Positions 2,668 through 21,241 of a stretch of 32,000 nt of DNA are shown here, one piece after another. Numbering within the stretch: position 1 is the stretch's first letter; the number at the start of each line of letters is the position of its first letter. The translations under genes and the position numbers were made by a program. The DNA lies in NCBI RefSeq assembly GCF_000020025.1, contig NC_010628.1, forward strand, positions 2,130,001 to 2,162,000, read 5' to 3'. Source of the DNA: Nostoc punctiforme PCC 73102. GTDB lineage: Bacteria; Cyanobacteriota; Cyanobacteriia; Cyanobacteriales; Nostocaceae. The notes under the pieces were generated by a model, which saw nothing but the letters and a program-made list of their open reading frames with translations, had not been told where the DNA came from and ran no database searches.

Positions 2668-3213
2668 TTAATTCACGCCTCGCAGCTTGCGAGTATTATC
2701 AACTAAACTCTGAGCAAATTGATCGAATCTTTGAGAAAGCTTTTCATCTACTAGCTTGCCTTCAGGACTGAATGCACCCCAAGCTTGTCCGATCGCAATT
2801 TGTTCTGGAATCACCCAACCATGCACCCATCTGACAATTAGCCGTAGGTCATTTAATGCGTTACTATTTGACTGACCACCCAATACGCTGATTAGTCCTG
2901 TCACTTTATCAGACAGTTGCTCAAAGCTCATCAAATCTAGAGCATTTTTCAGGACACCACTAACCCCACCGTGATACTCAGGTGTGGCTAAAATTAATCC
3001 ATCTGACTGGCTAACAGTATCCTGTAACCGCTTAACATCTGGGTACTCTGGATACTCTTTTGCGCCAGTGCAAAACGGTAACTGCAACTGTCTTAAATCA
3101 AGAATTTCTACCTCTGCACCAAGGGCTTCTACTCTTTGCACTGCTACTTGTAAAGCAAGCTGCGTATAGGAGTTTGGTCTTAAACTACCACCAATACCAA
3201 CAATTCTCACCAT
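2668..3213 (-). CDS. NAD(P)H-dependent FMN reductase (flavodoxin-like fold)
   Basis: 181 aa. MVRIVGIGGSLRPNSYT...ILATPEYHGGVSGVLKNALD is the classic NADPH-dependent FMN reductase (SsuE/ArsH-like) pattern. Confidence 0.8.
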   Translation of the reverse strand: MVRIVGIGGSLRPNSYTQLALQVAVQRVEALGAEVEILDLRQLQLPFCTGAKEYPEYPDVKRLQDTVSQSDGLILATPEYHGGVSGVLKNALDLMSFEQLSDKVTGLISVLGGQSNSNALNDLRLIVRWVHGWVIPEQIAIGQAWGAFSPEGKLVDEKLSQRFDQFAQSLVDNTRKLRGVN

Positions 3214-3543: not shown

Positions 3544-5472
3544 ATGACAAATTTGGGAAAAAAAGCATTGGTAAAAAGGCAGTCATCAAAGCGAGTTGCT
3601 TGGTTTGGTGCGAAGGCGCTGCCCGCCGTAGGCATCGCAGCTAGCTTGATTATGTTACCAGGAATTTTCGGGAGTACCCCCGTCTTGGCACAAAAAGCAG
3701 AGAGTACCTCTAGTAGCTCTAGTACCTCTCTAAACTATGGTGAGTTGATCAAGAAAGCGAAGGCGGGAGAAGTCCAAAAAGTAGAGCTTGACGAAACCGA
3801 ACAGGTAGCAAGAGTTTATCTCAAAGGGCAAAAGGAAAATACGCCACCGCAACAAGTGAGACTTTTAGCGCAAAACACAGAGTTAATTAACATACTCAAA
3901 GATAAAAATGTTGAGTTTGGCGAGATTTCCTCTGCTAACAGTCGAGCTGCTGTTGGGCTGTTGATTAATCTTATGTGGATTTTGCCACTGTTAGCTTTAA
4001 TGCTATTGTTCCTCCGACGCTCTACAAATGCTTCTAGCCAAGCGATGAATTTCGGCAAATCCAAAGCTCGTTTCCAAATGGAAGCCAAAACCGGAGTGAA
4101 ATTTGAAGATGTCGCCGGGGTTGAAGAAGCTAAAGAAGACCTTGAAGAAGTTGTTACTTTCCTGAAACAACCAGAAAGATTTACGGCTGTAGGTGCGCGG
4201 ATTCCCAAAGGAGTGCTGTTAATTGGTCCTCCTGGTACTGGTAAAACTTTACTAGCAAAAGCGATCGCAGGCGAAGCAGGTGTACCATTTTTCAGTATTT
4301 CCGGTTCGGAATTCGTGGAAATGTTCGTTGGTGTGGGTGCATCTCGCGTGCGCGACCTCTTCAAGAAAGCTAAAGAAAATGCCCCATGTCTAATATTTAT
4401 TGATGAAATTGACGCAGTAGGTAGACAACGGGGTGCAGGAATCGGTGGCGGTAATGATGAGCGCGAACAAACCCTCAATCAACTGCTCACCGAAATGGAT
4501 GGTTTTGAAGGCAACACAGGTATTATTATTATTGCTGCCACTAACCGCCCGGATGTCTTAGATGCAGCGTTGCTCAGACCAGGACGCTTTGACAGACAAG
4601 TGATGGTGGATGCACCGGATCTCAAAGGGCGACTGGAAATTTTGAAAGTCCACGCGCGGAATAAGAAAATTGACCCTAGCGTATCATTAGAAGCGATCGC
4701 TCGTCGCACTCCTGGATTTACTGGCGCAGACTTAGCCAACTTGCTCAACGAAGCGGCAATTCTGACTGCTCGGAGACGCAAAGAAGCTGTCACCATTTTA
4801 GAAATTGATGCTGCTGTGGATAGAGTTGTTGCAGGTATGGAAGGTACTGCATTAGTAGACAGCAAGAGCAAACGCTTGATTGCCTATCATGAAGTTGGAC
4901 ACGCTTTAGTAGGCACATTGCTCAAAGACCATGACCCTGTGCAGAAAGTTACATTAATTCCACGGGGACAAGCACTCGGATTAACTTGGTTTACTCCTAA
5001 CGAAGAACAGGGGTTAGTTTCCCGTTCCCAACTTAAATCCCGGATTACTGCTACTTTGGGTGGTCGCGCCGCCGAGGAAATCGTTTTTGGTAAGCCAGAA
5101 GTTACCACAGGTGCAAGCAATGACTTGCAACAGGTGACAGGGATGGCGCGGCAGATGGTGACACGCTTCGGGATGTCAGAATTAGGCCCATTGTCTCTGG
5201 AAAATCAGAGTGGAGAGGTATTTTTAGGACGCGACTGGATGAATAAATCAGACTATTCTGAAGAAATTGCCGCCAAGATTGATTCACAGGTGCGTGAAAT
5301 TGTAAACAACTCTTATATCAAGGCAAAAGAACTGTTGGAAGAAAACCGCATAGTTTTGGAACGTTTAGTAGATTTGTTAATAGAAGAAGAAACAATTGAA
5401 GGCGATTCATTCCGCCAAATCGTTGCTGATAATGCCCAAATAGCTGATGCACAATTAGCTGTACCTCATTAG
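3544..5472 (+). CDS. ftsH: ATP-dependent zinc metalloprotease FtsH
   Basis: 642 aa. Walker A GPPGTGKT, Walker B IIFIDEID, the SRH region, the zinc motif HEVGHA, two N-terminal TM segments and a Ser-rich linker. Confidence 0.95.
3610..3641 (+). repeat. 32-nt short dispersed repeat embedded in frame in the ftsH coding sequence
   Basis: gcgaaggcgctgcccgccgtaggcatcgcagc matches the minus strand of 7982-8013 at 30 of 32 positions. Here it is translated as [11 protein letters not shown]. Confidence 0.75.
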
Positions 5473-9492: not shown

Positions 9493-9518
9493 GAGACGTG
9501 ATAAATCGCCGTCTCTAC
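9493..9518. repeat. copy of the GACG(C/T)GATAAATCGCCGTCTCTAC dispersed repeat
   Basis: gagacgtgataaatcgccgtctctac. It lies inside a repeat-rich stretch that also holds a GTAGGGGCAATTCGTG-type element (about 9376-9400). Confidence 0.75.
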
Positions 9519-10174
9519 AAGATTTTATGTTACGAAAACGACACCCATTTTTAAGTGTACTGCGATCGCGTACCCGCCCGCCGGAGGCGATGGTCTCCGA
9601 CCGACCGGAGGTCATCGCAAACGAGACAGTTAATCTGAGATAGCGAACAATTAGTTTGCAATACTTAATATTAGATTATCTAATAATTAGTTTTTCATGA
9701 TATTGTGTTTGTCAGTACATATTTTTTTGTATGCATCGTGTAAACTCTATTTGCGGAGTAAGATTGCTACATAAATTTATGGTAATTCGAGCGCCAAGCA
9801 GCAGCAACCCTAGTTTTGCTGTGGTATTAACCTGACTTACAGTTTGGTTATTTCATTCCATATAGAGCAACTGAAGTCTACATTTTAGTTGTTTTGAAAG
9901 CATTCCATTATTACATTCAGTGTGGAGTTAGCAGTAAATGCTAGCCCAAAGCTTTGTATGGAAAGGATTTTATCAATCTGCCATCTGAGTATTTTTTGAT
10001 TGGATGTCAGCAGTTGAAAGCAAACATATTGTTGTCTACTCATCAGACACTTGCCACGTAGTTATAAGGATTTTACAAACAGTTAGGAATTAGCTAGCGA
10101 TCGCACACTGACGTTAGATGAAAAGCCATTAGCTATACGCAAATCAGCAATCACTATAGAAAAGAAAAAAGCTT

Positions 10175-11539
10175 ATGAGTACAACACGCAAGTTTCGTTT
10201 AGGTGCATTCGTTCAAGCCACCGGTCATCATGTCTCCTCTTGGCGACACCCCGATGCACAAGCAGATGCTGGATTGAATTTCGAGCATTACAAGGAAATT
10301 ACCCAGACTGCCGAACGCGGCTTGTTTGATGCAGTTTTTCTAGCAGATAGCCCAGGAGTCTGGGGTGGCTCTCCAGAAACTCAGTATCGCAACGGTAAAA
10401 TGGCCCATTTCGAGCCAGTCACTCTCTTCTCGGCCTTGTCCTCTGTTACCAAAAATATCGGCTTCATTTCCACCGCCTCGACTACTTATGAAGAACCCTA
10501 CACCTTGGCGCGGAAGTTTGCCTCGTTGGACTACTTGAGTAACGGCCGGGCAGGGTGGAATGTAGTCACCACAGGCAATGAGAACGCCGCTCGTAATTTC
10601 GGGCTTGAGCATCACCCGGAACATAGCCAGCGTTATGAACGCGCCGAAGAGTTTGTGGAAGTAGTGAAAGGACTGTGGGATAGCTGGGAAGATGATGCTT
10701 TTATCCGTGACAAAGAATCTGGTGTGTATTTCGACCCAGATAAACTGCATACACTCAACCATAAAGGCAAATATTTTTCTGTCCAAGGCCCTTTAAACGT
10801 CGGTCGTCCGCCTCAAGGCTACCCCGTGATTGTTCAGGCTGGAGCTTCGGAATCTGGCCGGGACTTAGCTGCACGCACCGCCGAAGTGATTTTCACCGCT
10901 AATCAAACCCTAGCTGATGCCCAAGAATTTTATGCTGATGTGAAAGGGAGATTAGCACAATATGGGCGATCGCCAGACGATCTAAAAATTATGCCCGGTG
11001 CTTTCCCAATCATTGGCCGTACCGAAGCAGAAGCTCAAGAGAAATACGAATTCCTGCAATCGCTGATTCATCCTGATGTCGCCTGGGGAATTTTAAAGAA
11101 CTATTACAAAGGTGTGGATCTGTCGAAATATTCTCTAGATGATGTGGCTCCTGAACTGCCCAGCGACACCAACACTAACAAGAGTCGTCTCAAACTAGTC
11201 AGAGATTTAGCGACTCGTGGCACTCTCACATTACGTCAGTTGTATCTCTCTCTTGCCACCGCACGAGGACATCGCACCATCCTTGGTACACCCGAAACCA
11301 TTGCCGATCAGTTAGAAGAATGGTTCAACAATGGTGCGGCAGACGCCTTTAATATCATGCCGCCAATTCTCCCCACAGAATTAGATGAATTCGTTAACTT
11401 AGTCGTTCCCATCTTGCAAAAACGTGGATTGTTCCGTACCGAATATGAGGGTAGTACCTTACGTGAAAACCTGGGATTGCGTCGTCCGGTCAATCGTTTT
11501 GCTGCAAAACAAGTAGACAAGAGCCTCGTGTTGGCGTAA
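10175..11539 (+). CDS. LLM-class flavin-dependent monooxygenase, NtaA/SnaA/DszA(SoxA) subfamily, copy 1
   Basis: 454 aa. The start (FRLGAFVQATGHHVSSWRHP...FDAVFLADS) and the overall length are characteristic of the about 450-aa NTA-monooxygenase/DszA group. There is an A-rich leader with AAGCTTATG. Confidence 0.9.
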   Translation: MSTTRKFRLGAFVQATGHHVSSWRHPDAQADAGLNFEHYKEITQTAERGLFDAVFLADSPGVWGGSPETQYRNGKMAHFEPVTLFSALSSVTKNIGFISTASTTYEEPYTLARKFASLDYLSNGRAGWNVVTTGNENAARNFGLEHHPEHSQRYERAEEFVEVVKGLWDSWEDDAFIRDKESGVYFDPDKLHTLNHKGKYFSVQGPLNVGRPPQGYPVIVQAGASESGRDLAARTAEVIFTANQTLADAQEFYADVKGRLAQYGRSPDDLKIMPGAFPIIGRTEAEAQEKYEFLQSLIHPDVAWGILKNYYKGVDLSKYSLDDVAPELPSDTNTNKSRLKLVRDLATRGTLTLRQLYLSLATARGHRTILGTPETIADQLEEWFNNGAADAFNIMPPILPTELDEFVNLVVPILQKRGLFRTEYEGSTLRENLGLRRPVNRFAAKQVDKSLVLA

Positions 11540-11653
11540 ATGACTTTTAATATCTGCACTGTGCTTAAGCAGACACGAAAAGTCATTAGCTATACACAAA
11601 TCAGCAATACCAAAGGTAAAGCTACCGCTAACGCAATATAAGAAAAAAAGCTT

Positions 11654-13021
11654 ATGACTACAACACGCAAACTTCGTTTAGGTGCATTCATTCAAGCTAC
11701 AGGTCATCACATATCAGCTTGGCGGCATCCCGATTCACAAGCAGATGCTGGACTAAATTTCGAGCATTACAAAGAAATTACCCAAACTGCCGAACGCGGC
11801 TTGTTCGATGCGGTTTTCCTTGCCGATAGCCCCAGTTTACAAGACAATAGTGAACCGGAGGTGCTGAAGCGCAACGGTAAATTAGCAAAGTTTGAGCCAG
11901 TGACGCTATTTTCCGCACTAGCACCATTAACCAAGCATATTGGCTTTGTTGCTACCGCTTCCACCACTTATGAAGAACCTTATACCCTTGCTCGGAAGTT
12001 TGCCTCATTGGACTACTTGAGTAACGGCCGGGCGGCGTGGAATGTAGTCACCACAGGTAATGAGAATGCCGCCGGTAATTTCGGGCTTGAGCATCACCCG
12101 GAACATAGCCAGCGTTATGAACGCGCCGAAGAGTTTGTAGAAGTAGTAAAAGGCTTGTGGGATAGCTGGGAAGATGATGCTTTCATCCGCGACAAAGAAT
12201 CTGGTGTCTATTTCGATCCAGATAAACTGCACACACTCAACTACAAAGGCAAACATTTTTCTGTCCAAGGCCCTTTAAACGTCGGTCGTCCGCCTCAAGG
12301 TTATCCAGTGATTGTGCAAGCTGGTGCTTCCGAAGTCGGCAGGGATCTGGCGGCACAGACTGCTGAAGTTATTTTTACTGCCAACCAAACCCTGGAAGAC
12401 GGGCAAGAATTTTATGCCGATGTGAAAGGACGATTGGCTAAATATGGTCGCCAACTAGACGATTTGAAAATCATGCCAGGTGTGTTCCCAGTGATTGGAC
12501 GCACTGAAGAAGAAGCCCAAGAAAAATACGAATTCCTGCAATCGTTAATTCACCCATCGGTGGCATGGGGATTACTCAAAACACGTTATAAAGGCATCGA
12601 TTTATCTGGCTATTCACTCGACGATCTTGCACCACCATTGCCCAGTGATACTAACGGTGGTAAGAGCCGCCTCAAGTTATTGACGGATCTTGTAAATCGC
12701 GGCAACTTAACGCTGCGTCAGTTGTATCTCTCTGTCGCTACCGCGCGGGGTCATCGCACCATAATTGGTAGTCCTGAAAGTATTGCTGACCAGTTAGAAG
12801 AATGGTTCAGCAATGGTGCGGCAGATGGTTTTAATATCATGCCGCCAATTCTCCCCACAGGGTTAGATGACTTCGTTAATCTAGTTATCCCAGTCTTGCA
12901 AAAACGTGGATTGTTCCGTACTGAATATGAGGGCAATACCTTGCGTGAAAACCTCGGATTGCGTCGTCCAGGTAATGGTTTTGCAGCAAAACAAGCAAAC
13001 AAGAGCCTCGTGGTAGTGTAA
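11654..13021 (+). CDS. LLM-class flavin-dependent monooxygenase, NtaA/SnaA/DszA(SoxA) subfamily, copy 2 (tandem paralogue)
   Basis: 455 aa, collinear with copy 1 at an offset of 1479 bp. It is roughly 85 percent identical by eye, including one run of 55 identical residues (NFGLEHHPEHSQRYERAEEF...DPDKLHTLN). Confidence 0.9.
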   Translation: MTTTRKLRLGAFIQATGHHISAWRHPDSQADAGLNFEHYKEITQTAERGLFDAVFLADSPSLQDNSEPEVLKRNGKLAKFEPVTLFSALAPLTKHIGFVATASTTYEEPYTLARKFASLDYLSNGRAAWNVVTTGNENAAGNFGLEHHPEHSQRYERAEEFVEVVKGLWDSWEDDAFIRDKESGVYFDPDKLHTLNYKGKHFSVQGPLNVGRPPQGYPVIVQAGASEVGRDLAAQTAEVIFTANQTLEDGQEFYADVKGRLAKYGRQLDDLKIMPGVFPVIGRTEEEAQEKYEFLQSLIHPSVAWGLLKTRYKGIDLSGYSLDDLAPPLPSDTNGGKSRLKLLTDLVNRGNLTLRQLYLSVATARGHRTIIGSPESIADQLEEWFSNGAADGFNIMPPILPTGLDDFVNLVIPVLQKRGLFRTEYEGNTLRENLGLRRPGNGFAAKQANKSLVVV

Positions 13022-13118
13022 ATAAATTTTTCACAGATGCTTATGCCATACCTTTTAAACTGCACCTTCTGTAGATCGCCGCCTACAGAATTTGAAAATT
13101 GTAGAGAGGGACGGGATT

Positions 13119-13149
13119 GTAGAGAGACGCGATAAATCGCCGTCTCTAC
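13119..13149. repeat. hairpin copy of the GACGCGATAAATCGCCGTCTCTAC repeat between monooxygenase 2 and the amidohydrolase gene
   Basis: gtagagagacgcgataaatcgccgtctctac is a near-palindrome. It could act as an intra-operon stem-loop. Confidence 0.75.
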
Positions 13150-13226
13150 AAGAAATGTATTTATCAATAGCAGCATCGGATACTGAAAAAAACCTGTAAT
13201 TTTTGTGCCGTAGGCAAGGAAAAAAC

Positions 13227-14765
13227 ATGACTGAATATAGCCGATTAAAGACCTCACGCTCCGCCGCAATCAGAGCAACCCTTGATTATCCGGTAATCGA
13301 TACCGATGTTCATACCAATGATTTCACACCGGCGTTTGAGGATTATATTGCTAAATACGGCGGTGTGAAACTCGTAGATGAGTTACGTAAAACCGAAGCT
13401 TCCCGTCTCAACTCCAAAAGCAATGGTAAAGACTGGTATCAACAAACCCCTGAAGAACGTCAATATAACCGGACAATCCGATCGCCTTGGTGGGCAAGAG
13501 TTACCAAAAATACGCTGGACCTCGCTACTTACACCCTCCCCGGATTGCTCTATGAGCGTCAGGCAGAGCAAGGATCAGACTATTCGGTGCTGTTTCTGAA
13601 TAATGTCCTAGCACCGGCTGGAGCAAGTGCAGAGAATCGTCAAGCACTGCAACGCGCGGTTAATCATTATCATGCTGATATCTACCGTAAATATAGCGAT
13701 CGCCTGACACCGGTAGCTGGTATTCCCTTAACTACTCCCCAAGAAGGCATTGAGGAGCTAGAATTTGCAGTAAAAACACTCGGTTTAAAAGTGATTAATA
13801 TCACTGGCGGGGTGAAACGGCCAATTAAAGCGATCGCTGATAAATATCCAGCCGATAAATTCCCCGAAATCGCCAAGTATGCCTCTTATATCGACTTCTA
13901 CGGACTAGATAGTGAATACGACTACGATCCCTTCTGGGCAAAGGTCGTGGAACTTGGTGTACCTGTCACCACCCATTACGGTAGCCAAGGTTGGACTGGA
14001 CGCTCCTCCATTAGTAACTACATGAACAACCATATCGGTCACTTCGCCGATGGTTCGGAAGCATTTGCGAAGGCTTTGTTCTTCGGTGGCGTTACCAAGC
14101 GTTTTCCACAGTTGCGTGTAGCGATGCTCGAAGGTGGTGCAGATTGGGGTGCCCGCGTCTACATTCATTTGGTAGATCGTTTCTCCAAGCGCAATATCAA
14201 GGCATTGGAAAATTACAATCCAGCATTGACAAATGCTGATGAGCTATTTGAAATATTTGAACGCTATGGTGCAGAAGTTACTCAAGGGCATTCCCTCGAT
14301 AAAGACGAATTGACCAAGACTGTACTGGGAGCTTCATTTAGCCGTCATAGCCGTGCGCCAATTGGTAGCGAATTGGACGATTTTGCAGCAGCAGGTATTG
14401 AAACAATTGAAGACATCCGCGATCGCTGGGTGAATAGTTTCTTCTTTGGTTCCGAGTCTGACGATCGCACCATTGCTACGGCATTCAACGACAAAGCCAA
14501 TCCCTTGGGAGTCAAAATCAACGCCATCTATTCCTCTGATGTTGGTCATTGGGATGTACCAGACTTGACTTCCCCCTTGGCTGAAAGCTGGGATTTGGTT
14601 CAAGAAGGCGTTATTTCCGAAGCCGACTTTAAGTCCTATGTATTCGCTAATCCCTACAAGTTTTACACCCAAGCTAACCCCGAATTTTTCAAGGGTACTG
14701 CGATCGAATCCAAGGTAGGTAACACCGAATTTAAACAAGTGGACAAGAGCCTGGTGGTGGCGTAA
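13227..14765 (+). CDS. amidohydrolase-fold (amidohydrolase-2/ACMSD-like) metal-dependent hydrolase or decarboxylase
   Basis: The preferred start is the ATG at 13227 (MTEYSRLK), preceded by AGGCAAGGAAAAAAC. The track start at 13203 is a TTG that adds a Cys to an otherwise Cys-free protein. The early VIDTDVHT metal-binding motif, then later HYGSQGW, and the 512-aa length fit the family. Confidence 0.75.
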   Translation: MTEYSRLKTSRSAAIRATLDYPVIDTDVHTNDFTPAFEDYIAKYGGVKLVDELRKTEASRLNSKSNGKDWYQQTPEERQYNRTIRSPWWARVTKNTLDLATYTLPGLLYERQAEQGSDYSVLFLNNVLAPAGASAENRQALQRAVNHYHADIYRKYSDRLTPVAGIPLTTPQEGIEELEFAVKTLGLKVINITGGVKRPIKAIADKYPADKFPEIAKYASYIDFYGLDSEYDYDPFWAKVVELGVPVTTHYGSQGWTGRSSISNYMNNHIGHFADGSEAFAKALFFGGVTKRFPQLRVAMLEGGADWGARVYIHLVDRFSKRNIKALENYNPALTNADELFEIFERYGAEVTQGHSLDKDELTKTVLGASFSRHSRAPIGSELDDFAAAGIETIEDIRDRWVNSFFFGSESDDRTIATAFNDKANPLGVKINAIYSSDVGHWDVPDLTSPLAESWDLVQEGVISEADFKSYVFANPYKFYTQANPEFFKGTAIESKVGNTEFKQVDKSLVVA

Positions 14766-14941
14766 AAGCCGAGATGAGGGCGTGGGGGGGAGATGAAAAA
14801 AAATCAATCCCCCATGCCCTGAGCGTAAAGCCTACGGCATAGCTTCGCTTAACGCGCAGCGTCTCCGTTAGGAGAAGCCGTTCGCGTAGCGTCTCGCAGA
14901 GAAGGGATGCCCAAAGCCCAAATAAATTAGGAGTCACAACC

Positions 14942-15610
14942 ATGTCCGTAGAACAACGCTCTTACGAAACCAATAATGGTTCTTTGCCTTATCTTTTCTC
15001 GCCTGTTTCTGACAATGCCAAGCAACCTGCACCCTTAGTACTATTTCTGCATGGAGGACGCGATCGCGGGACGGATCTGAATGTGCTACTGAAATGGGGT
15101 CTACCTCGTTTCGTAGATTTATCCGACTCATTACCTTATGTCTTCGCCGCACCCCAGATTCCGGCTGAACAAACTTGGGCAGATCGAGCAGATGACGTGC
15201 TCGCTTTGCTTGATGAACTGATTGCTTCCCAGCCCGTCGATCCAGCACGGGTGATATTAGCCGGGTTCAGCTTAGGCTCGGCCGGGATCTGGCATGTCGC
15301 TGCTTTACATCCCAATCGCTTCGCCGGTCTAGTACCTGTATCTGGACGTGTACCCAAGACACTTGGAGAAAGCGAACTAGCTGCACTCAAAGATATTCCC
15401 GTTCAGATATTTCAAGGTGGACAAGACAAAAATCTGCCAATAGAGGATACAGAGAATTTTGTTGAGCGCTTACGCAAAGTCGGCGGGAAAGTCGATTTGA
15501 CAGTGCTGCCAGAAGGCGATCATTTTATTGCAGATGAAGTATACAGCGATCCGAAGTTGCAACAGTGGCTAGTTTCCCTGAGCCGTCGCAACACTGCTTT
15601 AGTTGTCTGA
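14942..15610 (+). CDS. alpha/beta hydrolase, carboxylesterase/phospholipase-type
   Basis: 222 aa. LVLFLHGG, the nucleophile elbow GFSLGSAG, and later QGGQDKNLP and GDHF give a Ser-Asp-His arrangement. Confidence 0.75.
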   Translation: MSVEQRSYETNNGSLPYLFSPVSDNAKQPAPLVLFLHGGRDRGTDLNVLLKWGLPRFVDLSDSLPYVFAAPQIPAEQTWADRADDVLALLDELIASQPVDPARVILAGFSLGSAGIWHVAALHPNRFAGLVPVSGRVPKTLGESELAALKDIPVQIFQGGQDKNLPIEDTENFVERLRKVGGKVDLTVLPEGDHFIADEVYSDPKLQQWLVSLSRRNTALVV

Positions 15611-15823
15611 GGCACAAAACCCCAAAAGTCAGCGCTCAGGAACTGGGGGCTGAGATACAAAAGAAGATTTTTCTCAATCCCCATGACCGACAAAGAAAAG
15701 GATACAAGCCCCTAAATTTATTTATGGTTACTGAGCGTAGCCGTAAAGCCTGCGGCATAGCTACGCTTAGGGCGCAGCCTCTCGTAGAGAAGTATGGGAA
15801 TTATTAATTTTAAATTTTGAATT

Positions 15824-16843
15824 TTGAATTCGGAGCGAAGCGACGTGACCTTACCAACCACCAATCTTGGAAAAACTGGATTAACTTTTTCCCGCCTTTG
15901 TCTCGGCACCATGACCTTTGGATTGCAGACTGACGAAGAAACTTCTAGGGACATTCTCGACACCGCCGCCGATGGCGGAATCAACTTTTTAGATACAGCC
16001 GATGTTTATCCACTTGGCGGTGGGCTTGCTACTGCTGGGCGTACCGAAGAAATTGTTGGGCGCTGGCTCAAAGGTAAACGCAAACATTTTATCTTAGCTA
16101 CCAAGTGCGTCGGCCGGGTTGGCCCTGCACCTTGGGATCAGGGTGCTTCGCGCAAACATATTCTAGATGCGATCGATGCTTCTCTACGACGTTTGGGAAC
16201 CGACTATATCGACCTGTACCAATTGCACTCCGACGATACTTCCACCCCCCTCGATGAAACCCTGGAAGCGCTGGACGCGGTAGTTCGTGCTGGCAAAGTA
16301 CGCTATATCGGGGTTTCCAACTTCTTAGCCTACCGACTTGCCCGCGCCTTGGGTCGCGCCGAGACACGCAATCTAACCAGGTTCGTCTCAATTCAGCCCC
16401 GCTACAACCTGTTGTTCCGCGAAATTGAGCGAGAACTATTGCCCCTAGCTAAAGAAGAAGGACTGGGTGTAATTTCCTACAATCCCTTGGCGGGTGGTCT
16501 GCTCACCGGGAAACACATTCTCGCTCAAGGCCCCACCTCCGGTACACGTTTTACGCTAGGTGCTGCCGCAGAACGTTATCAAGAACGCTACTGGCATGAT
16601 CGCGAGTTCGATACTGTAGAGGAATTACGCACAGTCGCGGATCTCGCCGGATTGTCGCTCACAACCCTAGCGGTAGCTTGGGTTTTATCTAATCCTATTA
16701 TCACTGCCCCCATCATCGGCGCTAGTCGCCCACAACAACTTGCTGACAACTTCAAGGCAGTGGAAGTCAAACTCGACGACAGTTTGAAACAAAAGTTAGA
16801 TGACTTAACCGCCGAATACCGAAGGGGAGATTCTCTTCGTTAG
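15824..16843 (+). CDS. aldo/keto reductase
   Basis: 339 aa. LGKTGLTFSRLCLGTMTFG, INFLDTADVY, DYIDLYQLH, GKVRYIGVSNF and IIGASRPQQL are AKR signatures. The start is uncertain: a TTG at 15824 lying in a heptamer repeat, or a GTG at 15845. Confidence 0.85.
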   Translation: MNSERSDVTLPTTNLGKTGLTFSRLCLGTMTFGLQTDEETSRDILDTAADGGINFLDTADVYPLGGGLATAGRTEEIVGRWLKGKRKHFILATKCVGRVGPAPWDQGASRKHILDAIDASLRRLGTDYIDLYQLHSDDTSTPLDETLEALDAVVRAGKVRYIGVSNFLAYRLARALGRAETRNLTRFVSIQPRYNLLFREIERELLPLAKEEGLGVISYNPLAGGLLTGKHILAQGPTSGTRFTLGAAAERYQERYWHDREFDTVEELRTVADLAGLSLTTLAVAWVLSNPIITAPIIGASRPQQLADNFKAVEVKLDDSLKQKLDDLTAEYRRGDSLR

Positions 16844-17062: not shown

Positions 17063-18943
17063 ATGACGAAAAAGACCAGACAATTCAAATCCTTTCAACG
17101 TGCTGCTGATGCACCAAACCTGCCATCAACTCCATTCAGGTTCATTTTGTATTTCGTTAACCAGTTTCGCCAGTGGTATGTGTTAATGGTGATTCTGGAG
17201 ATGGTACACGCAACCTGTGGCATTATGTTGCCTTATGCCATTGGTGAGATCATCCGGGGTGTAACGAAATCAACGGGCGGCAGCCAGCCCATTTTTGATG
17301 CCATGAGGCAACCCCTGATGCTGTTTATCGCGTTGAGTGTGGGTGAAGTGATATTCGGGCGTTCGGCTGGACTCTTGCAAACTATCCTCCATCCAGTCCA
17401 CCGACAGCATATTGTGCGATCGCTATATGCCTACTTGCAACACCATTCGCATCGCTACATGAGTAGCAGTTTTTCTGGGGCATTGGCACATCGAATTAGC
17501 GAAACTTCTCTGGGTGTTACTCAGACGATGCAAATGCTAATTACTGAATTTATGCCAGTAATTGTTGTGTATACCGTCGCTACGACGATACTGTATCGCT
17601 CCTATCCTCCCCTGGCTGCACTCGTTGGCGTGTGGGCAGTTCTCTTCATCAGTATTTCGTTCTGGCTAGCAACTCGCTGCCGAATTTACTCCCGGAAAGC
17701 CGCAGCCGCCAGAAGTGAGACAACTGGCATCATCGTAGATACAGTAACAAATCTCACCAGTAGCCGACTGTTTGCTCGTTTGGGTTTTGAACGAGGCTAT
17801 TTGAATGAGCAATTAAGCCGCGAACTCAAACAGGTGAGAAAATCCAACTGGTACTCGGAGCGAATTCGCTGGTTTCAGTTTATCTCGGCAGCCATTCTAA
17901 AAATCAGCACCCTGTATTACTCACTTTCCCTTTGGAGTCAAGGGAAGATCGCTACTGCTGATTTCGTTGTCGCAACTAGCTTATCGTTATTAATAATCAG
18001 TGAAGCCCGGAATTTGAGCCGCCGCTTTCTGGAATTTTTTGAACATATCGGCAATGTCGCCAATGGTGTCTTTACCATCGTTCAACCCCACGAGTTGGTC
18101 GATCGCGATCGCGCGATCGCACACCCAATTACCCAAGGTAAGATTGAGTTTCGCCGAGTGAATTTCAATTACTCTGATGAAAAGAAAGTTTTCAACAACC
18201 TTTCTGTCACCATCCAAGCCGGACAGCGTGTCGGACTGGTGGGCTTCTCTGGTTCTGGAAAATCCAGCTTTGTCAATCTAATTCTGCGTTTGTTCGACCC
18301 CCAATCTGGACAGATTATTATTGATGGGGTCGATATTCGAGACATGACTCAGGATGCCCTACACGCACAGATCAGCTTGATTCCCCAAGATCCGTCTCTG
18401 TTCCATCGCACTTTGCTAGAAAATATTCGTTACGGACGCTTGGATGCAACCGATGAGGAAGTGTTCGAGGCGGCGCGAAAGGCTAATGCTCACGATTTCA
18501 TTATTCAAAGTCAGGATGGTTACAATTCTCTGGTGGGCGAACGTGGTGTCAAGTTATCTGGAGGGCAGAGACAACGCATTGCGATCGCTCGGGTAATCCT
18601 CAAAGATGCGCCGATTCTGATTTTGGATGAAGCCACCTCTAGCCTCGATTCAATCACCGAAAAAGCGATCCAAGATACCCTCGACTTAGCCATGAATGGG
18701 AAAACAGTCATTGTGGTGGCTCATCGACTATCTACCATTGTCCATCTAGACCGGATTTTGGTGTTTGACAAAGGTCACATTATCGAAGATGGTTCCCACA
18801 CCAAACTGCTGGCACTCGGCGGCGCTTACCACAGGTTATGGAAAATGCAGGCGGGTGGATTTATCCCAGAAAATCCCGGCGAGGAACGCATACATGAGGT
18901 TCGCACTCGCACAGATAACGTCCAAAAGGGAATGATCGCTTGA
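17063..18943 (+). CDS. ABC transporter, fused permease/ATPase (MsbA-like exporter, no peptidase domain)
   Basis: 626 aa. A six-helix N-terminal half, then Walker A GFSGSGKSS, signature LSGGQRQR, Walker B ILILDEATS and an H-loop VAHRLST. Confidence 0.9.
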   Translation: MTKKTRQFKSFQRAADAPNLPSTPFRFILYFVNQFRQWYVLMVILEMVHATCGIMLPYAIGEIIRGVTKSTGGSQPIFDAMRQPLMLFIALSVGEVIFGRSAGLLQTILHPVHRQHIVRSLYAYLQHHSHRYMSSSFSGALAHRISETSLGVTQTMQMLITEFMPVIVVYTVATTILYRSYPPLAALVGVWAVLFISISFWLATRCRIYSRKAAAARSETTGIIVDTVTNLTSSRLFARLGFERGYLNEQLSRELKQVRKSNWYSERIRWFQFISAAILKISTLYYSLSLWSQGKIATADFVVATSLSLLIISEARNLSRRFLEFFEHIGNVANGVFTIVQPHELVDRDRAIAHPITQGKIEFRRVNFNYSDEKKVFNNLSVTIQAGQRVGLVGFSGSGKSSFVNLILRLFDPQSGQIIIDGVDIRDMTQDALHAQISLIPQDPSLFHRTLLENIRYGRLDATDEEVFEAARKANAHDFIIQSQDGYNSLVGERGVKLSGGQRQRIAIARVILKDAPILILDEATSSLDSITEKAIQDTLDLAMNGKTVIVVAHRLSTIVHLDRILVFDKGHIIEDGSHTKLLALGGAYHRLWKMQAGGFIPENPGEERIHEVRTRTDNVQKGMIA

Positions 18944-19970: not shown

Positions 19971-21241
19971 CTGAAGGGGGGACAAGCACCCGAAAGCCTT
20001 TGTGCTGTATTAAGTTGAGCGAATTATGGTAAAAAAAGATAGGTCAGTATTGTCAATAAGACCTATCTGTTGAAAATGTTACCTGAATTATACCAGAAGC
20101 ATCTACAAAGTTTACTTTCACAGTCCGAATTAATATTTCTGACGCTGGTGATTAACGTAGTACAAAATATCAAAGATGTGAAACTAGAGAAAATATCAGA
20201 GTCGCGACCATTATTCATTCAATGCCAGTCGAGACGGAAGAAGTTACAAAGGTTTCTATCATTACCAATATTGTTGAATATAGAAGAATTATGGTTTCCC
20301 ATAATTGAACGATGGTTAGCTCAAACTTTCCTCGGAAATCACCGAATCTATTTAGCAATTGATAGGACGAATTGGAAAAGAAAAAATCTACTAATGATTA
20401 GTGTAATTTTTCAAAAAAGAGCTATACCGATATACTTTAAGCTTTTAGCAAAATTAGGTAGTAGTAACTTATCAGAACAAACTAAGGCATTATCAAAGAT
20501 AATTCCCTTATTTAAAAACTATAAAACGGTAGTGTTAGGAGATAGAGAGTTTTGTTCAGTGAGCTTGGCGGAATGGCTTGATGAACAAGGGTTTGAGTTT
20601 TGTTTGAGACTCAAGAAAAATGAGAATATTGAGTTGAAAGCTCATTTATGGTGCGAAATAAAAGATTTAGGTTTAAAACCAGGAACATCTTTTTTTGTAT
20701 CAGATGCAACGGTAACAAAAACTAAACAAGTGAAGGGATTTAATGTGGCTTGCAAATGGAAAAAGAATTACCGTCAAAACAAAGCCAAAGAAGGATGGTT
20801 TATTTTAACTAACATGAATAGTAAAATAACGGCGATTCAGGCATATCAAAAGCGCTTTGATATAGAAGAGATGTTTAGAGATTTTAAAAGTGGCGGTTAC
20901 AATTTAGAGAAGACAAATGTGGAAGGTAAGCGGTTTATTGCTTTAGTTTTAATCATCTCATTAGCTGACACTATTGCTACATTACAAGGTCAGAATATTA
21001 AGAGTAAAGGAATTGCAAAATATCTGGCACGTCCCAAAGAATATGGACGTTCTCACAGAAGGCATAGTAACTTTTATATCGGTCTTTATGCACAGAACTG
21101 GGTTAATTTCATTGGTGATTGTTGGAGTTTAGTTCAAGATTTAATGCGATTAAGTCGTCATAAACTAGAGAATTATTTACAAGGGATGAGAGCTATGAAG
21201 CTTATACAGTCAGCTTTATAGGCTTCATGTCGCCCCTTCAG
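19971..21241 (+). mobile_element. IS4-family insertion sequence (1271 bp), apparently intact
   Basis: Ends CTGAAGGGGGGACA and, for the reverse complement of the right end, CTGAAGGGGCGACA. There is a 9-bp direct repeat AGCCAATGC at 19962-19970 and 21242-21250, and a single uninterrupted transposase ORF. Confidence 0.85.
20070..21221 (+). CDS. IS4-family DDE transposase
   Basis: 383 aa. LAIDRTNW and VLGDREF supply the first two acidic residues. YQKRFDIEEMFRDFK fits the IS4 Y-2-R-3-E-6-K signature. The start is a TTG at 20070 or an ATG at 20076. Confidence 0.85.
   Translation: MKMLPELYQKHLQSLLSQSELIFLTLVINVVQNIKDVKLEKISESRPLFIQCQSRRKKLQRFLSLPILLNIEELWFPIIERWLAQTFLGNHRIYLAIDRTNWKRKNLLMISVIFQKRAIPIYFKLLAKLGSSNLSEQTKALSKIIPLFKNYKTVVLGDREFCSVSLAEWLDEQGFEFCLRLKKNENIELKAHLWCEIKDLGLKPGTSFFVSDATVTKTKQVKGFNVACKWKKNYRQNKAKEGWFILTNMNSKITAIQAYQKRFDIEEMFRDFKSGGYNLEKTNVEGKRFIALVLIISLADTIATLQGQNIKSKGIAKYLARPKEYGRSHRRHSNFYIGLYAQNWVNFIGDCWSLVQDLMRLSRHKLENYLQGMRAMKLIQSAL

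Follow-up and report, generated by a model that had tools for sequence, protein, structure and literature searches.

A C-terminal motif common to non-homologous enzymes of a Nostoc punctiforme operon and its possible role as a built-in degradation signal

The stretch of DNA analyzed here, called the window in the following, comprises 32,000 nucleotides of the genome of Nostoc punctiforme PCC 73102 (NC_010628.1, positions 2,130,001 to 2,162,000). It contains an operon in which two monooxygenases (MO1 and MO2) and an Amidohydro_2 protein (AH) without detectable homology to them end in closely similar decapeptides, and in which an esterase (EST) carries a weaker version of the same ending. This tail is a short linear recognition motif that is anchored at the free C-terminus and located on an extension of each enzyme. 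Judged from the comparative analysis, it may represent a built-in, genome-encoded ssrA-like C-terminal degron on catabolic enzymes of sulfur starvation, a reading that is put forward tentatively. The genes and tails concerned are the following, with positions counted within the window:

10175 to 11539, forward strand: MO1, FMNH2-dependent monooxygenase of the NtaA/DmoA family (454 amino acids, no Cys, three internal Met)
11495 to 11536, forward strand: C-terminal extension of MO1, residues 441-454 (RFAAKQVDKSLVLA), beyond the alignment to PDB structures
11507 to 11536, forward strand: MO1 core motif KQVDKSLVLA
11654 to 13021, forward strand: MO2, paralogous NtaA/DmoA monooxygenase (455 amino acids), with the tail KQANKSLVVV at 12989-13018
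13227 to 14765, forward strand: AH, metalloenzyme of the Amidohydro_2 fold (512 amino acids, no Cys, two internal Met); the open reading frame (ORF) as listed spans 13203-14765, and the start at 13227 was chosen from orthologues
14733 to 14762, forward strand: AH tail KQVDKSLVVA, residues 503-512
14942 to 15610, forward strand: EST, alpha/beta-hydrolase (carboxylesterase/dienelactone hydrolase-like; 222 amino acids, no Cys, no internal Met)
15584 to 15607, forward strand: EST tail RRNTALVV, weaker, with a related hydrophobic end

Directly before the stop codon, MO1 ends in NRFAAKQVDKSLVLA (i.e. ...AAKQVDKSLVLA), MO2 in NGFAAKQANKSLVVV (i.e. ...AAKQANKSLVVV) and AH in GNTEFKQVDKSLVVA (i.e. ...EFKQVDKSLVVA), and all three tails fit the pattern KQ(V/A)(D/N)KSLV(L/V)(A/V). 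The peptides and DNA strings quoted in the original prediction, which was made from the sequence without database searches, were all recovered at their positions in the window, and the ending of EST, which had been described as a weaker echo, was confirmed as such.

Family membership was verified by profile and structure searches. Against TIGR03860, MO1 reaches 619 bits and MO2 609 bits (NCBIfam cut-off 279.7), which places both in the NtaA/DmoA family, and the nearest solved structures to MO1 are those of Bacillus subtilis YtnJ/MoxC (1tvl/6ask). AH belongs to Pfam Amidohydro_2 (PF04909; 42.2 bits, gathering threshold 26.4), and Foldseek assigned a probability of 1.00 to Amidohydro_2-fold decarboxylases and dimetal oxygenases. 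The latter, among the nearest solved folds, are the amidohydrolase-fold enzymes AibH1H2, SfbO, TruffO, PtmU3, and DitZ, and AH may be no hydrolase at all. EST matches alpha/beta-hydrolase families in the profile search. The profile-profile comparison of MO and AH with hhalign gave a probability of 0.1%, i.e. no homology. As both folds are (beta/alpha)8 barrels, from different superfamilies, "no detectable homology" is a more accurate wording than the "structurally unrelated" of the original prediction.

The conservation of the tail was analyzed in a Nostocales sample of 80 loci with one genome per species, and codons were tabulated for 167 distinct tail DNAs, 82 from AH and 85 from MO. The original prediction had made its case depend on the presence of the tail in close orthologues. 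All cyanobacterial orthologues retrieved in the searches for AH and MO1 homologues end in ...[DE]-[KQE]-x-L-[VA]-x-[AV], including those from Nostocales, Cylindrospermopsis/Raphidiopsis, Leptolyngbya-like genera, and Crinalium and, for MO, also from Pseudanabaena and Alkalinema. The consensus of the tail is [KQ]-Q-x-[DN]-[KE]-x-L-V-x-[AV]-COOH, and the individual C-terminal patterns are:

AH, Nostocales loci: Q-V-D-K-[SN]-L-V-V-[AV]
First MO copy, Nostocales loci: K-Q-[VL]-D-E-R-L-V-L-A
Second MO copy, Nostocales loci: K-Q-V-[DN]-K-N-L-V-V-[AV]
EST orthologues (55 distinct DNAs): R-R-x-x-[SAP]-[VL]-V-[AV]

The second MO copy of other loci has an AH-like tail, KQVDKNLVVA. Aligned by distance from the stop codon, AH and MO have the same commonest residue at 7 of the last 10 positions. 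Counted from the C-terminus, Leu(-4) is present in 100% of the 82 AH and 85 MO DNAs with all six Leu codons in use, Val(-3) is kept in 93-96% (AH 93%) with four codons and Q(-9) in 92-98% (AH 98%). In AH, D(-7) and K(-6) reach 91% and 93%, respectively, and the linker positions of the tail vary freely. A polar or charged residue at -1 occurs in 0 of the 167 distinct tail DNAs, and the motif directly abuts the stop codon in all of them. Only two Nostocales orthologues are exceptional, one ending in LVLT and one with an extra residue (LVLAR); among other cyanobacteria, extensions past the motif were found in Tildeniella (LVTAQT) and Rivularia (LVLAG).

Selection acts on the peptide and not on a DNA repeat, as had been suggested from the window, because Leu(-4) is invariant with six codons and conservation is absent from the DNA that follows the AH stop codon; downstream of the MO stop codon about 9 bases are kept before conservation decays. 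A block of DNA recurring at many non-coding sites would point to a repeat, and the 24-nucleotide tail block was found in the 32 kb window with up to three mismatches only at the three stop-proximal sites, with none expected from 100 shuffled sequences. The direct repeat between MO1 and AH extends from the Lys codon to one base past the stop codon, and the tail DNAs of the two genes are identical at 30 of 36 positions (31 of 34 across the repeat block). The MO-AH tail DNA identity has a median of 24 of 36 positions over 86 pairs, and the value of the window lies at the top of a continuous distribution. The commonest MO1 tail is KQLDERLVLA, from which the change of DER to DKS needs two nucleotide substitutions. 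Gene conversion was considered as the origin of the identical decapeptides and rejected as unneeded: it is not required given the continuous distribution and the mere two substitutions in MO1, and a hint for MO2/AH was non-significant.

Among the 397 ORF families of at least 100 amino acids in the fetched Nostocales loci, the ending LV.[AV]-COOH occurs in MO and AH only. The pattern is well past what chance would yield. Tailless are the aldo/keto reductase (AKR) of the same operon, which ends in RRGDSLR in 54 of 71 family members, a GDSL hydrolase encoded in related loci, and the flavin mononucleotide (FMN) reductase encoded on the opposite strand; the operon therefore supplies its own control with AKR, as does the nearby FMN reductase. 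Both are located in the window as follows:

15824 to 16843, forward strand: AKR, aldo/keto reductase in the same operon, without tail (internal negative control)
2668 to 3213, reverse strand: NADPH-dependent FMN reductase, without tail, ending in TRKLRGVN

In three Nostoc genomes, a second AH paralogue is encoded upstream of the cluster, with the polar end ...LAGKESQK (KAATEYLAGKESQK), which indicates that the AH fold is independent of the motif:

L061, 6061-7551: AH paralogue
L069, 6040-7551: AH paralogue
L076, 3344-4834: AH paralogue

Here and below, L-numbers are labels of the retrieved homologous loci. A partial echo of the tail was noticed in a flavoprotein of about 480 amino acids from 22 Nostocales loci, which ends in ...WKQPAKAAVS, i.e. 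KQ followed by an Ala/Val-rich end. Examples are:

L055, 11749-13212: flavoprotein with tail echo
L062, 15344-16783: flavoprotein with tail echo
L070, 11610-13088: flavoprotein with tail echo

An AH that is 98% identical to that of Nostoc and has the Nostoc tail was also found on a 4 kb contig (L013, CAZZZY010000643.1) of a metagenome-assembled genome (MAG) designated "uncultured Acetobacteraceae", which is probably mis-binned cyanobiont DNA. In the plasmid collection searched, the cluster is carried by no Nostocales plasmid.

The position of the tail beyond the fold, as claimed for the monooxygenases, was confirmed for both families. The TIGR03860 model ends at MO residue 432/433, about 22 residues short of the C-terminus, and the alignment of MO1 to YtnJ/MoxC ends at residue 440 of 454. 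AlphaFold2 models computed on deep alignments have a mean predicted local distance difference test (pLDDT) score of 85.7 for AH and 87.0 for MO. In these models, AH has coil with a pLDDT below 50 over its last 10 residues, and residues 441-453 of MO form a helix with a pLDDT of 77 falling to 51, in which hydrophobic residues are placed at i, i+4, and i+8. Both tails thus lie beyond the conserved folds, that of AH predicted to be disordered and that of MO to be a weak helix.

Outside the cyanobacteria, AH has 70-77% identity to betaproteobacterial orthologues and MO about 70% to proteobacterial ones, and the two co-occur from cyanobacteria to Betaproteobacteria. The original prediction had raised the question of a lineage-specific appendage. 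Only the terminal motif is cyanobacterial; the tail as such is not lineage-specific, since the proteobacterial AH and MO have tails of similar length with different endings, and N-R-F-A-A-K, with which the MO tail begins as its first half, is kept in different phyla. Proteobacterial AH proteins end in ...[VI]AAE (many), ...KAA, or unremarkably, and MO proteins in ...RSA, ...ASA, ...TA, or others. A general cross-phylum shared tail was considered and dropped: the endings of AH and MO match in the proteobacterial MAG locus L107 (10001-11536 and 18676-20022; both VAAE) and weakly in a Bordetella pair (...QAKAA and ...ARAAA), and no sharing was found in L110-L113. In L114 (10001-11928), RSA is the ending of MO as well as of the adjoining FMN reductase. 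L-A-[RQK]-[SIT]-A-COOH is kept in the FMN reductase family of Alphaproteobacteria, whose MO ends in ...RSA without an AH nearby. In Pseudanabaena, where the genes are located on a plasmid, the endings are ...RQLVA for MO, ...QKVAVSV for AH, and ...QQPVAV for a glutathione S-transferase (GST), all of which are aliphatic without forming a single motif.

The tailed proteins bear a composition signature of sulfur starvation. Cys is absent from MO1, MO2, AH, and EST, their internal Met residues number 0-3, and sulfur amino acids account for 0-0.66% of their residues vs. 2-3.5% in neighbouring proteins, 0.9% in AKR, and 1.1% in the FMN reductase. Such sulfur-sparing composition is a classical mark of sulfur-starvation proteins, and it was also found across the sulfur island of the Pseudanabaena plasmid (L116). 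The low Cys and Met content therefore suggests that the tailed proteins are conditionally expressed starvation proteins. The conserved cluster also encodes SsuA-like binding proteins and, in other lineages, TauD, GST, FMN reductases, Rrf2 regulators, and sulfate transporters. Two further neighbours are relevant for the function of the tail:

17063 to 18943, forward strand: fused ATP-binding cassette (ABC) exporter, MsbA-like; its Nostoc-subclade extension ends in GMIA
3544 to 5472, forward strand: FtsH AAA+ metalloprotease, divergent neighbour of the FMN reductase

Across phyla (cyanobacteria and several proteobacteria), no neighbour of AH is more constant than the ABC exporter. In a Nostoc subclade (among L004-L083) it was observed to have an extra end of about 25 residues, ...EERIxEVRTGTDNVE(E/K)GMIA, with a hydrophobic terminus; the copies of other Nostocales stop at ...GGFLPV.. 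instead. The divergent pair of FMN reductase and FtsH is located about 5 kb upstream of the operon, with the FMN reductase itself at about 7 kb, and is linked to it in the approximately 10 closest Nostoc loci only. The FMN reductase is the likely flavin donor of MO1 and MO2, and FtsH is a candidate reader of non-polar C-termini.

The likeness of the tail to the proteolysis tag of transfer-messenger RNA (tmRNA), whose end ALVAA had been named in the original prediction, was verified with tmRNA genes retrieved from a metagenome scan by DNA patterns derived from tag sequences. ARAGORN predicted the tag ANNIV[K/N/S]FARKDALVAA in 12 tmRNA genes/loci and ANNIVPFARKAAPVAA in one locus, and ANNIVNFARKDALVAA is marked by the program as the tag of Nostoc punctiforme. 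The ending named in the prediction is thus right; as the search pattern itself specified KDALVAA, the tags are not a sample of the genome of the window, and the match shows only that this tag occurs in real tmRNA genes. No tmRNA gene was found in the fetched Nostocales loci, and the tag strings had no match in the literature search. With a tag ending in ...KDALVAA, the tails have L(-4), V(-3), and A(-1) in common with it, the ends being L-V-[VLT]-[AV] for the tail and L-V-A-A for the tag.

On these grounds, the tail is tentatively read as a degron. The putatively exposed L-V-x-A-COOH would be gripped by an AAA+ protease (ClpXP in the first place, possibly ClpCP or FtsH) like the ...KDALVAA tag, and the gripped enzyme would then be unfolded and destroyed. 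The same signal on MO1, MO2, and AH, and more weakly on EST, would impose a common short or conditional lifetime, so that the tailed enzymes would vanish fast once transcription ceases. The benefit might be the clearing of enzymes that consume NAD(P)H and FMNH2 and are prone to form H2O2. The degron reading draws on the C-terminal anchoring, the aliphatic end, the predicted exposure of the AH tail, the resemblance to the tmRNA tag, the loose Pseudanabaena ends, and published precedent; the protease reading, the identity of the protease and the physiological rationale are inferred. The Pseudanabaena ends, which are aliphatic but not identical, are more in keeping with a loose rule for non-polar tails than with a specific docking site, and the lack of covariation between AH and MO tails at -1 within the Nostocales is as expected for a tolerant common reader. 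As precedent, tags ending in LVA destabilise enhanced yellow fluorescent protein in Synechocystis more than those ending in AAV or ASV (PMC2860132). The cyanobacterial aldehyde decarbonylase carries a family-conserved ssrA-like degron of about 10 amino acids, RMSAYGLAAA, which is read by ClpAP and Lon in Escherichia coli and blocked by residues added after it (PMC7325246).

The tail resembles the ssrA tag and other ClpX C-motif 1 signals in its extreme C-terminal position, its small aliphatic end, and its location on an extension, which is predicted to be disordered in AH. It differs from ssrA, which is added co-translationally, in being genome-encoded on folded enzymes and in having V, L, or T at position -2, where the tag has A. 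With the aldehyde decarbonylase degron it has in common that a whole family of cyanobacterial metabolic enzymes bears an ssrA-like C-terminus of about 10 residues; the action of that degron depends on its terminal position. However, that case concerns one family and was shown experimentally in E. coli (PMC7325246), whereas the tail described here, a candidate degron, is common to two or three non-homologous families of one operon. Natural ssrA-like degrons are therefore already known, and the sharing among non-homologous enzymes of one operon is the new part; the literature search yielded no prior description of one such motif common to non-homologous enzymes of one operon.

Several points weigh against a degron. 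Positions -10 to -6 (K-Q-x-D-K/E) are conserved beyond the need of a plain non-polar-tail degron, and this upstream half of the tail is unlike the ssrA body F-A-R-K-D. AKR, the GDSL hydrolase, and the opposite-strand FMN reductase are all tailless, so the pathway as a whole is not tagged, contrary to the original prediction. The proteobacterial endings ...[VI]AAE of AH and ...RSA of MO include some that are unlike known ClpX signals, and the MO tail is predicted by AlphaFold2 to be helical at moderate confidence rather than disordered. The agreement with the tmRNA tag is limited by the search pattern, as described above. Finally, a catalytic and oligomeric role is documented for the C-terminal extension of MsuD, a related group C monooxygenase (PMC8234197).

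These weaknesses make a docking or co-assembly peptide the main rival. A common partner would read the tail, and MO, AH, and EST would come together in a transient complex for sulfur scavenging; one specific form of this idea has AH and EST copy the C-terminal "lid" of MO and plug the groove that normally takes the tail of the neighbouring MO subunit. The surplus conservation at -10 to -6, the predicted MO helix with its regularly spaced hydrophobic residues, and the co-occurrence of MO and AH across phyla are in line with docking, as are the isolated proteobacterial loci with shared partner endings (L107 with VAAE and L114 with RSA) and the fact that AH and the second MO copy occasionally have the same decapeptide, in L033 with an uncommon Q at -10. 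Long C-termini of unexplained function are a general feature of group C monooxygenases, and the C-terminus of MsuD enters the neighbouring protomer's active site, its truncation lowering the activity 13-fold (PMC8234197). MO1 and MO2 belong to the same class of FMNH2-dependent TIM barrels as MsuD/SsuD and likewise extend beyond the barrel, but the MsuD tail is Pro/Gly/Ala-rich and unconserved with its last four residues disordered (PMC8234197), whereas conservation in the MO tail is highest at the last four residues, and the motif recurs on AH and weakly on EST. Furthermore, endings are not shared in most proteobacterial loci examined (L110-L113) and only loosely in Pseudanabaena, covariation between AH and MO tails is absent in the Nostocales, and the AH tail is predicted to be fully disordered. 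Among the partners, only the FMN reductase is known to require contact with MO, and in Nostoc it is without the motif; besides MO, AH, and the ABC exporter the cluster contains no constant candidate receptor gene. V-x-[AV]-COOH fits the hydrophobic-x-hydrophobic-COOH pattern of PDZ class II ligands, in which the middle position varies; the cluster itself encodes no PDZ protein. A docking function is regarded as unlikely, though a serious contender. Somewhat less probable still is an elaboration in which the tail is a pathway-specific address, AH and EST with their copy of the MO lid plug into MO or another shared receptor such as the ABC exporter to form a transient metabolon, and the proteobacterial VAAE and RSA endings are other dialects of it. 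The MsuD precedent (PMC8234197) would equally suit independent, enzyme-intrinsic tails serving oligomerisation or as active-site lids, with a likeness caused by compositional convergence and occasional micro-conversion of adjacent 3' ends. Similar tail lengths in both families across phyla, the conserved N-R-F-A-A-K start, and the lineage-specific endings without a sharing partner (RSA of alphaproteobacterial MO and L-A-[RQK]-[SIT]-A of the FMN reductase) are compatible with this. It is nevertheless improbable that two families without detectable homology agree by themselves at 7 of 10 commonest residues in the same register, with the motif missing from every other family in the set of 397. 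In addition, an AH paralogue exists without the motif, the AH tail is predicted to be disordered and not packed on the fold, and conversion is neither needed nor indicated, as the identity is continuous and synonymous sites are scrambled.

The remaining explanations are far less probable. In type 1 secretion signals, the chain ends in hydrophobic residues that come after an acidic one, and a strictly C-terminal tail with a hydrophobic end after an acidic residue, together with the ABC exporter as the most constant neighbour of AH, would be compatible with an export or targeting signal read by this exporter in a type 1 secretion-like manner. However, the searches revealed neither a membrane-fusion or outer-membrane component near the exporter nor a C39 domain or RTX repeats, and clusters without the exporter are known (Bordetella, Variovorax, Advenella). 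The dependence of the monooxygenases on FMNH2 and NAD(P)H from the cytosol makes an extracellular role implausible, and export is very unlikely. Slightly less credit is given to a peptide for loading into an encapsulin or bacterial microcompartment (BMC) shell, the alternative named in the original prediction. The motif is short, terminal, and common to unrelated cargo-like enzymes, and Synechococcus elongatus has a sulfur-starvation encapsulin. The analysis gave no support for this: no shell, encapsulin, or BMC-domain gene is present in the window or in about 15 annotated contexts, which are local contexts and not whole genomes, known cargo-loading peptides including GSL-type motifs were not matched, and the AH tail is predicted as coil and only the MO tail as helical, compared with the amphipathic helix of about 18 amino acids in BMC peptides. 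Encapsulation peptides and type 1 signals are alike with the tail in being short terminal peptides on unrelated proteins with one destination; they differ in their motifs, and the contexts contain neither shell genes nor secretion partners for enzymes in need of cytosolic cofactors. Just as poor are the chances of a tail without function, arising by chance likeness, as a DNA repeat over stop codons or by a recent copy of a 3' end. The tail DNAs of MO1 and AH are indeed identical at 30 of 36 positions here, at the top of the distribution. Yet the peptide is kept in about 170 distinct cyanobacterial sequences with freely varying synonymous sites, the flanking DNA is unconserved past a few bases after the MO stop codon, the block occurs nowhere else in the window, and the motif is missing from the rest of the 397 ORF families.

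Some additional elements were annotated in the window. Around the operon, a hairpin-forming repeat of about 34 nucleotides (GAGACG.GATAAATCGCCGTCTCTACAAG) is located at 9494-9527 upstream of MO1 and at 13125-13158 between MO2 and AH, and a 42-nucleotide intergenic repeat, whose copies are 88% identical, follows AH (14824-14865) and EST (15742-15783). Scans of the operon against Rfam and for promoters and terminators gave no informative match. A transposase of the IS4 family (20070-21221) lies directly downstream of the operon and a GAF protein. A ferrochelatase/CbiX-like protein (1505-2623) has a natural C-terminal run of eight histidines (...LAGDHHHHHHHH), which is kept in 8 related loci.

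The pattern of the shared tail is robust; the mechanism is a proposal. If the degron reading is true, the operon would contain several unrelated enzymes that bear one genome-encoded mimic of the tmRNA tag, and a conditional, potentially harmful pathway would receive a simple shared short lifetime, reduced-flavin chemistry being associated with a waste of NAD(P)H and the possible production of H2O2. The tail would then be a natural, host-matched degradation tag for the engineering of Nostoc and Anabaena, it would define what cyanobacterial AAA+ proteases read, and it would explain poor heterologous yields of the tailed enzymes. If instead a docking code is true, a new mode of assembly would be found for two-component flavin monooxygenase pathways, and the long C-termini of group C monooxygenases, which have been called unexplained (PMC8234197), would gain a function. 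Either way, the tail is a clean and testable short linear motif.

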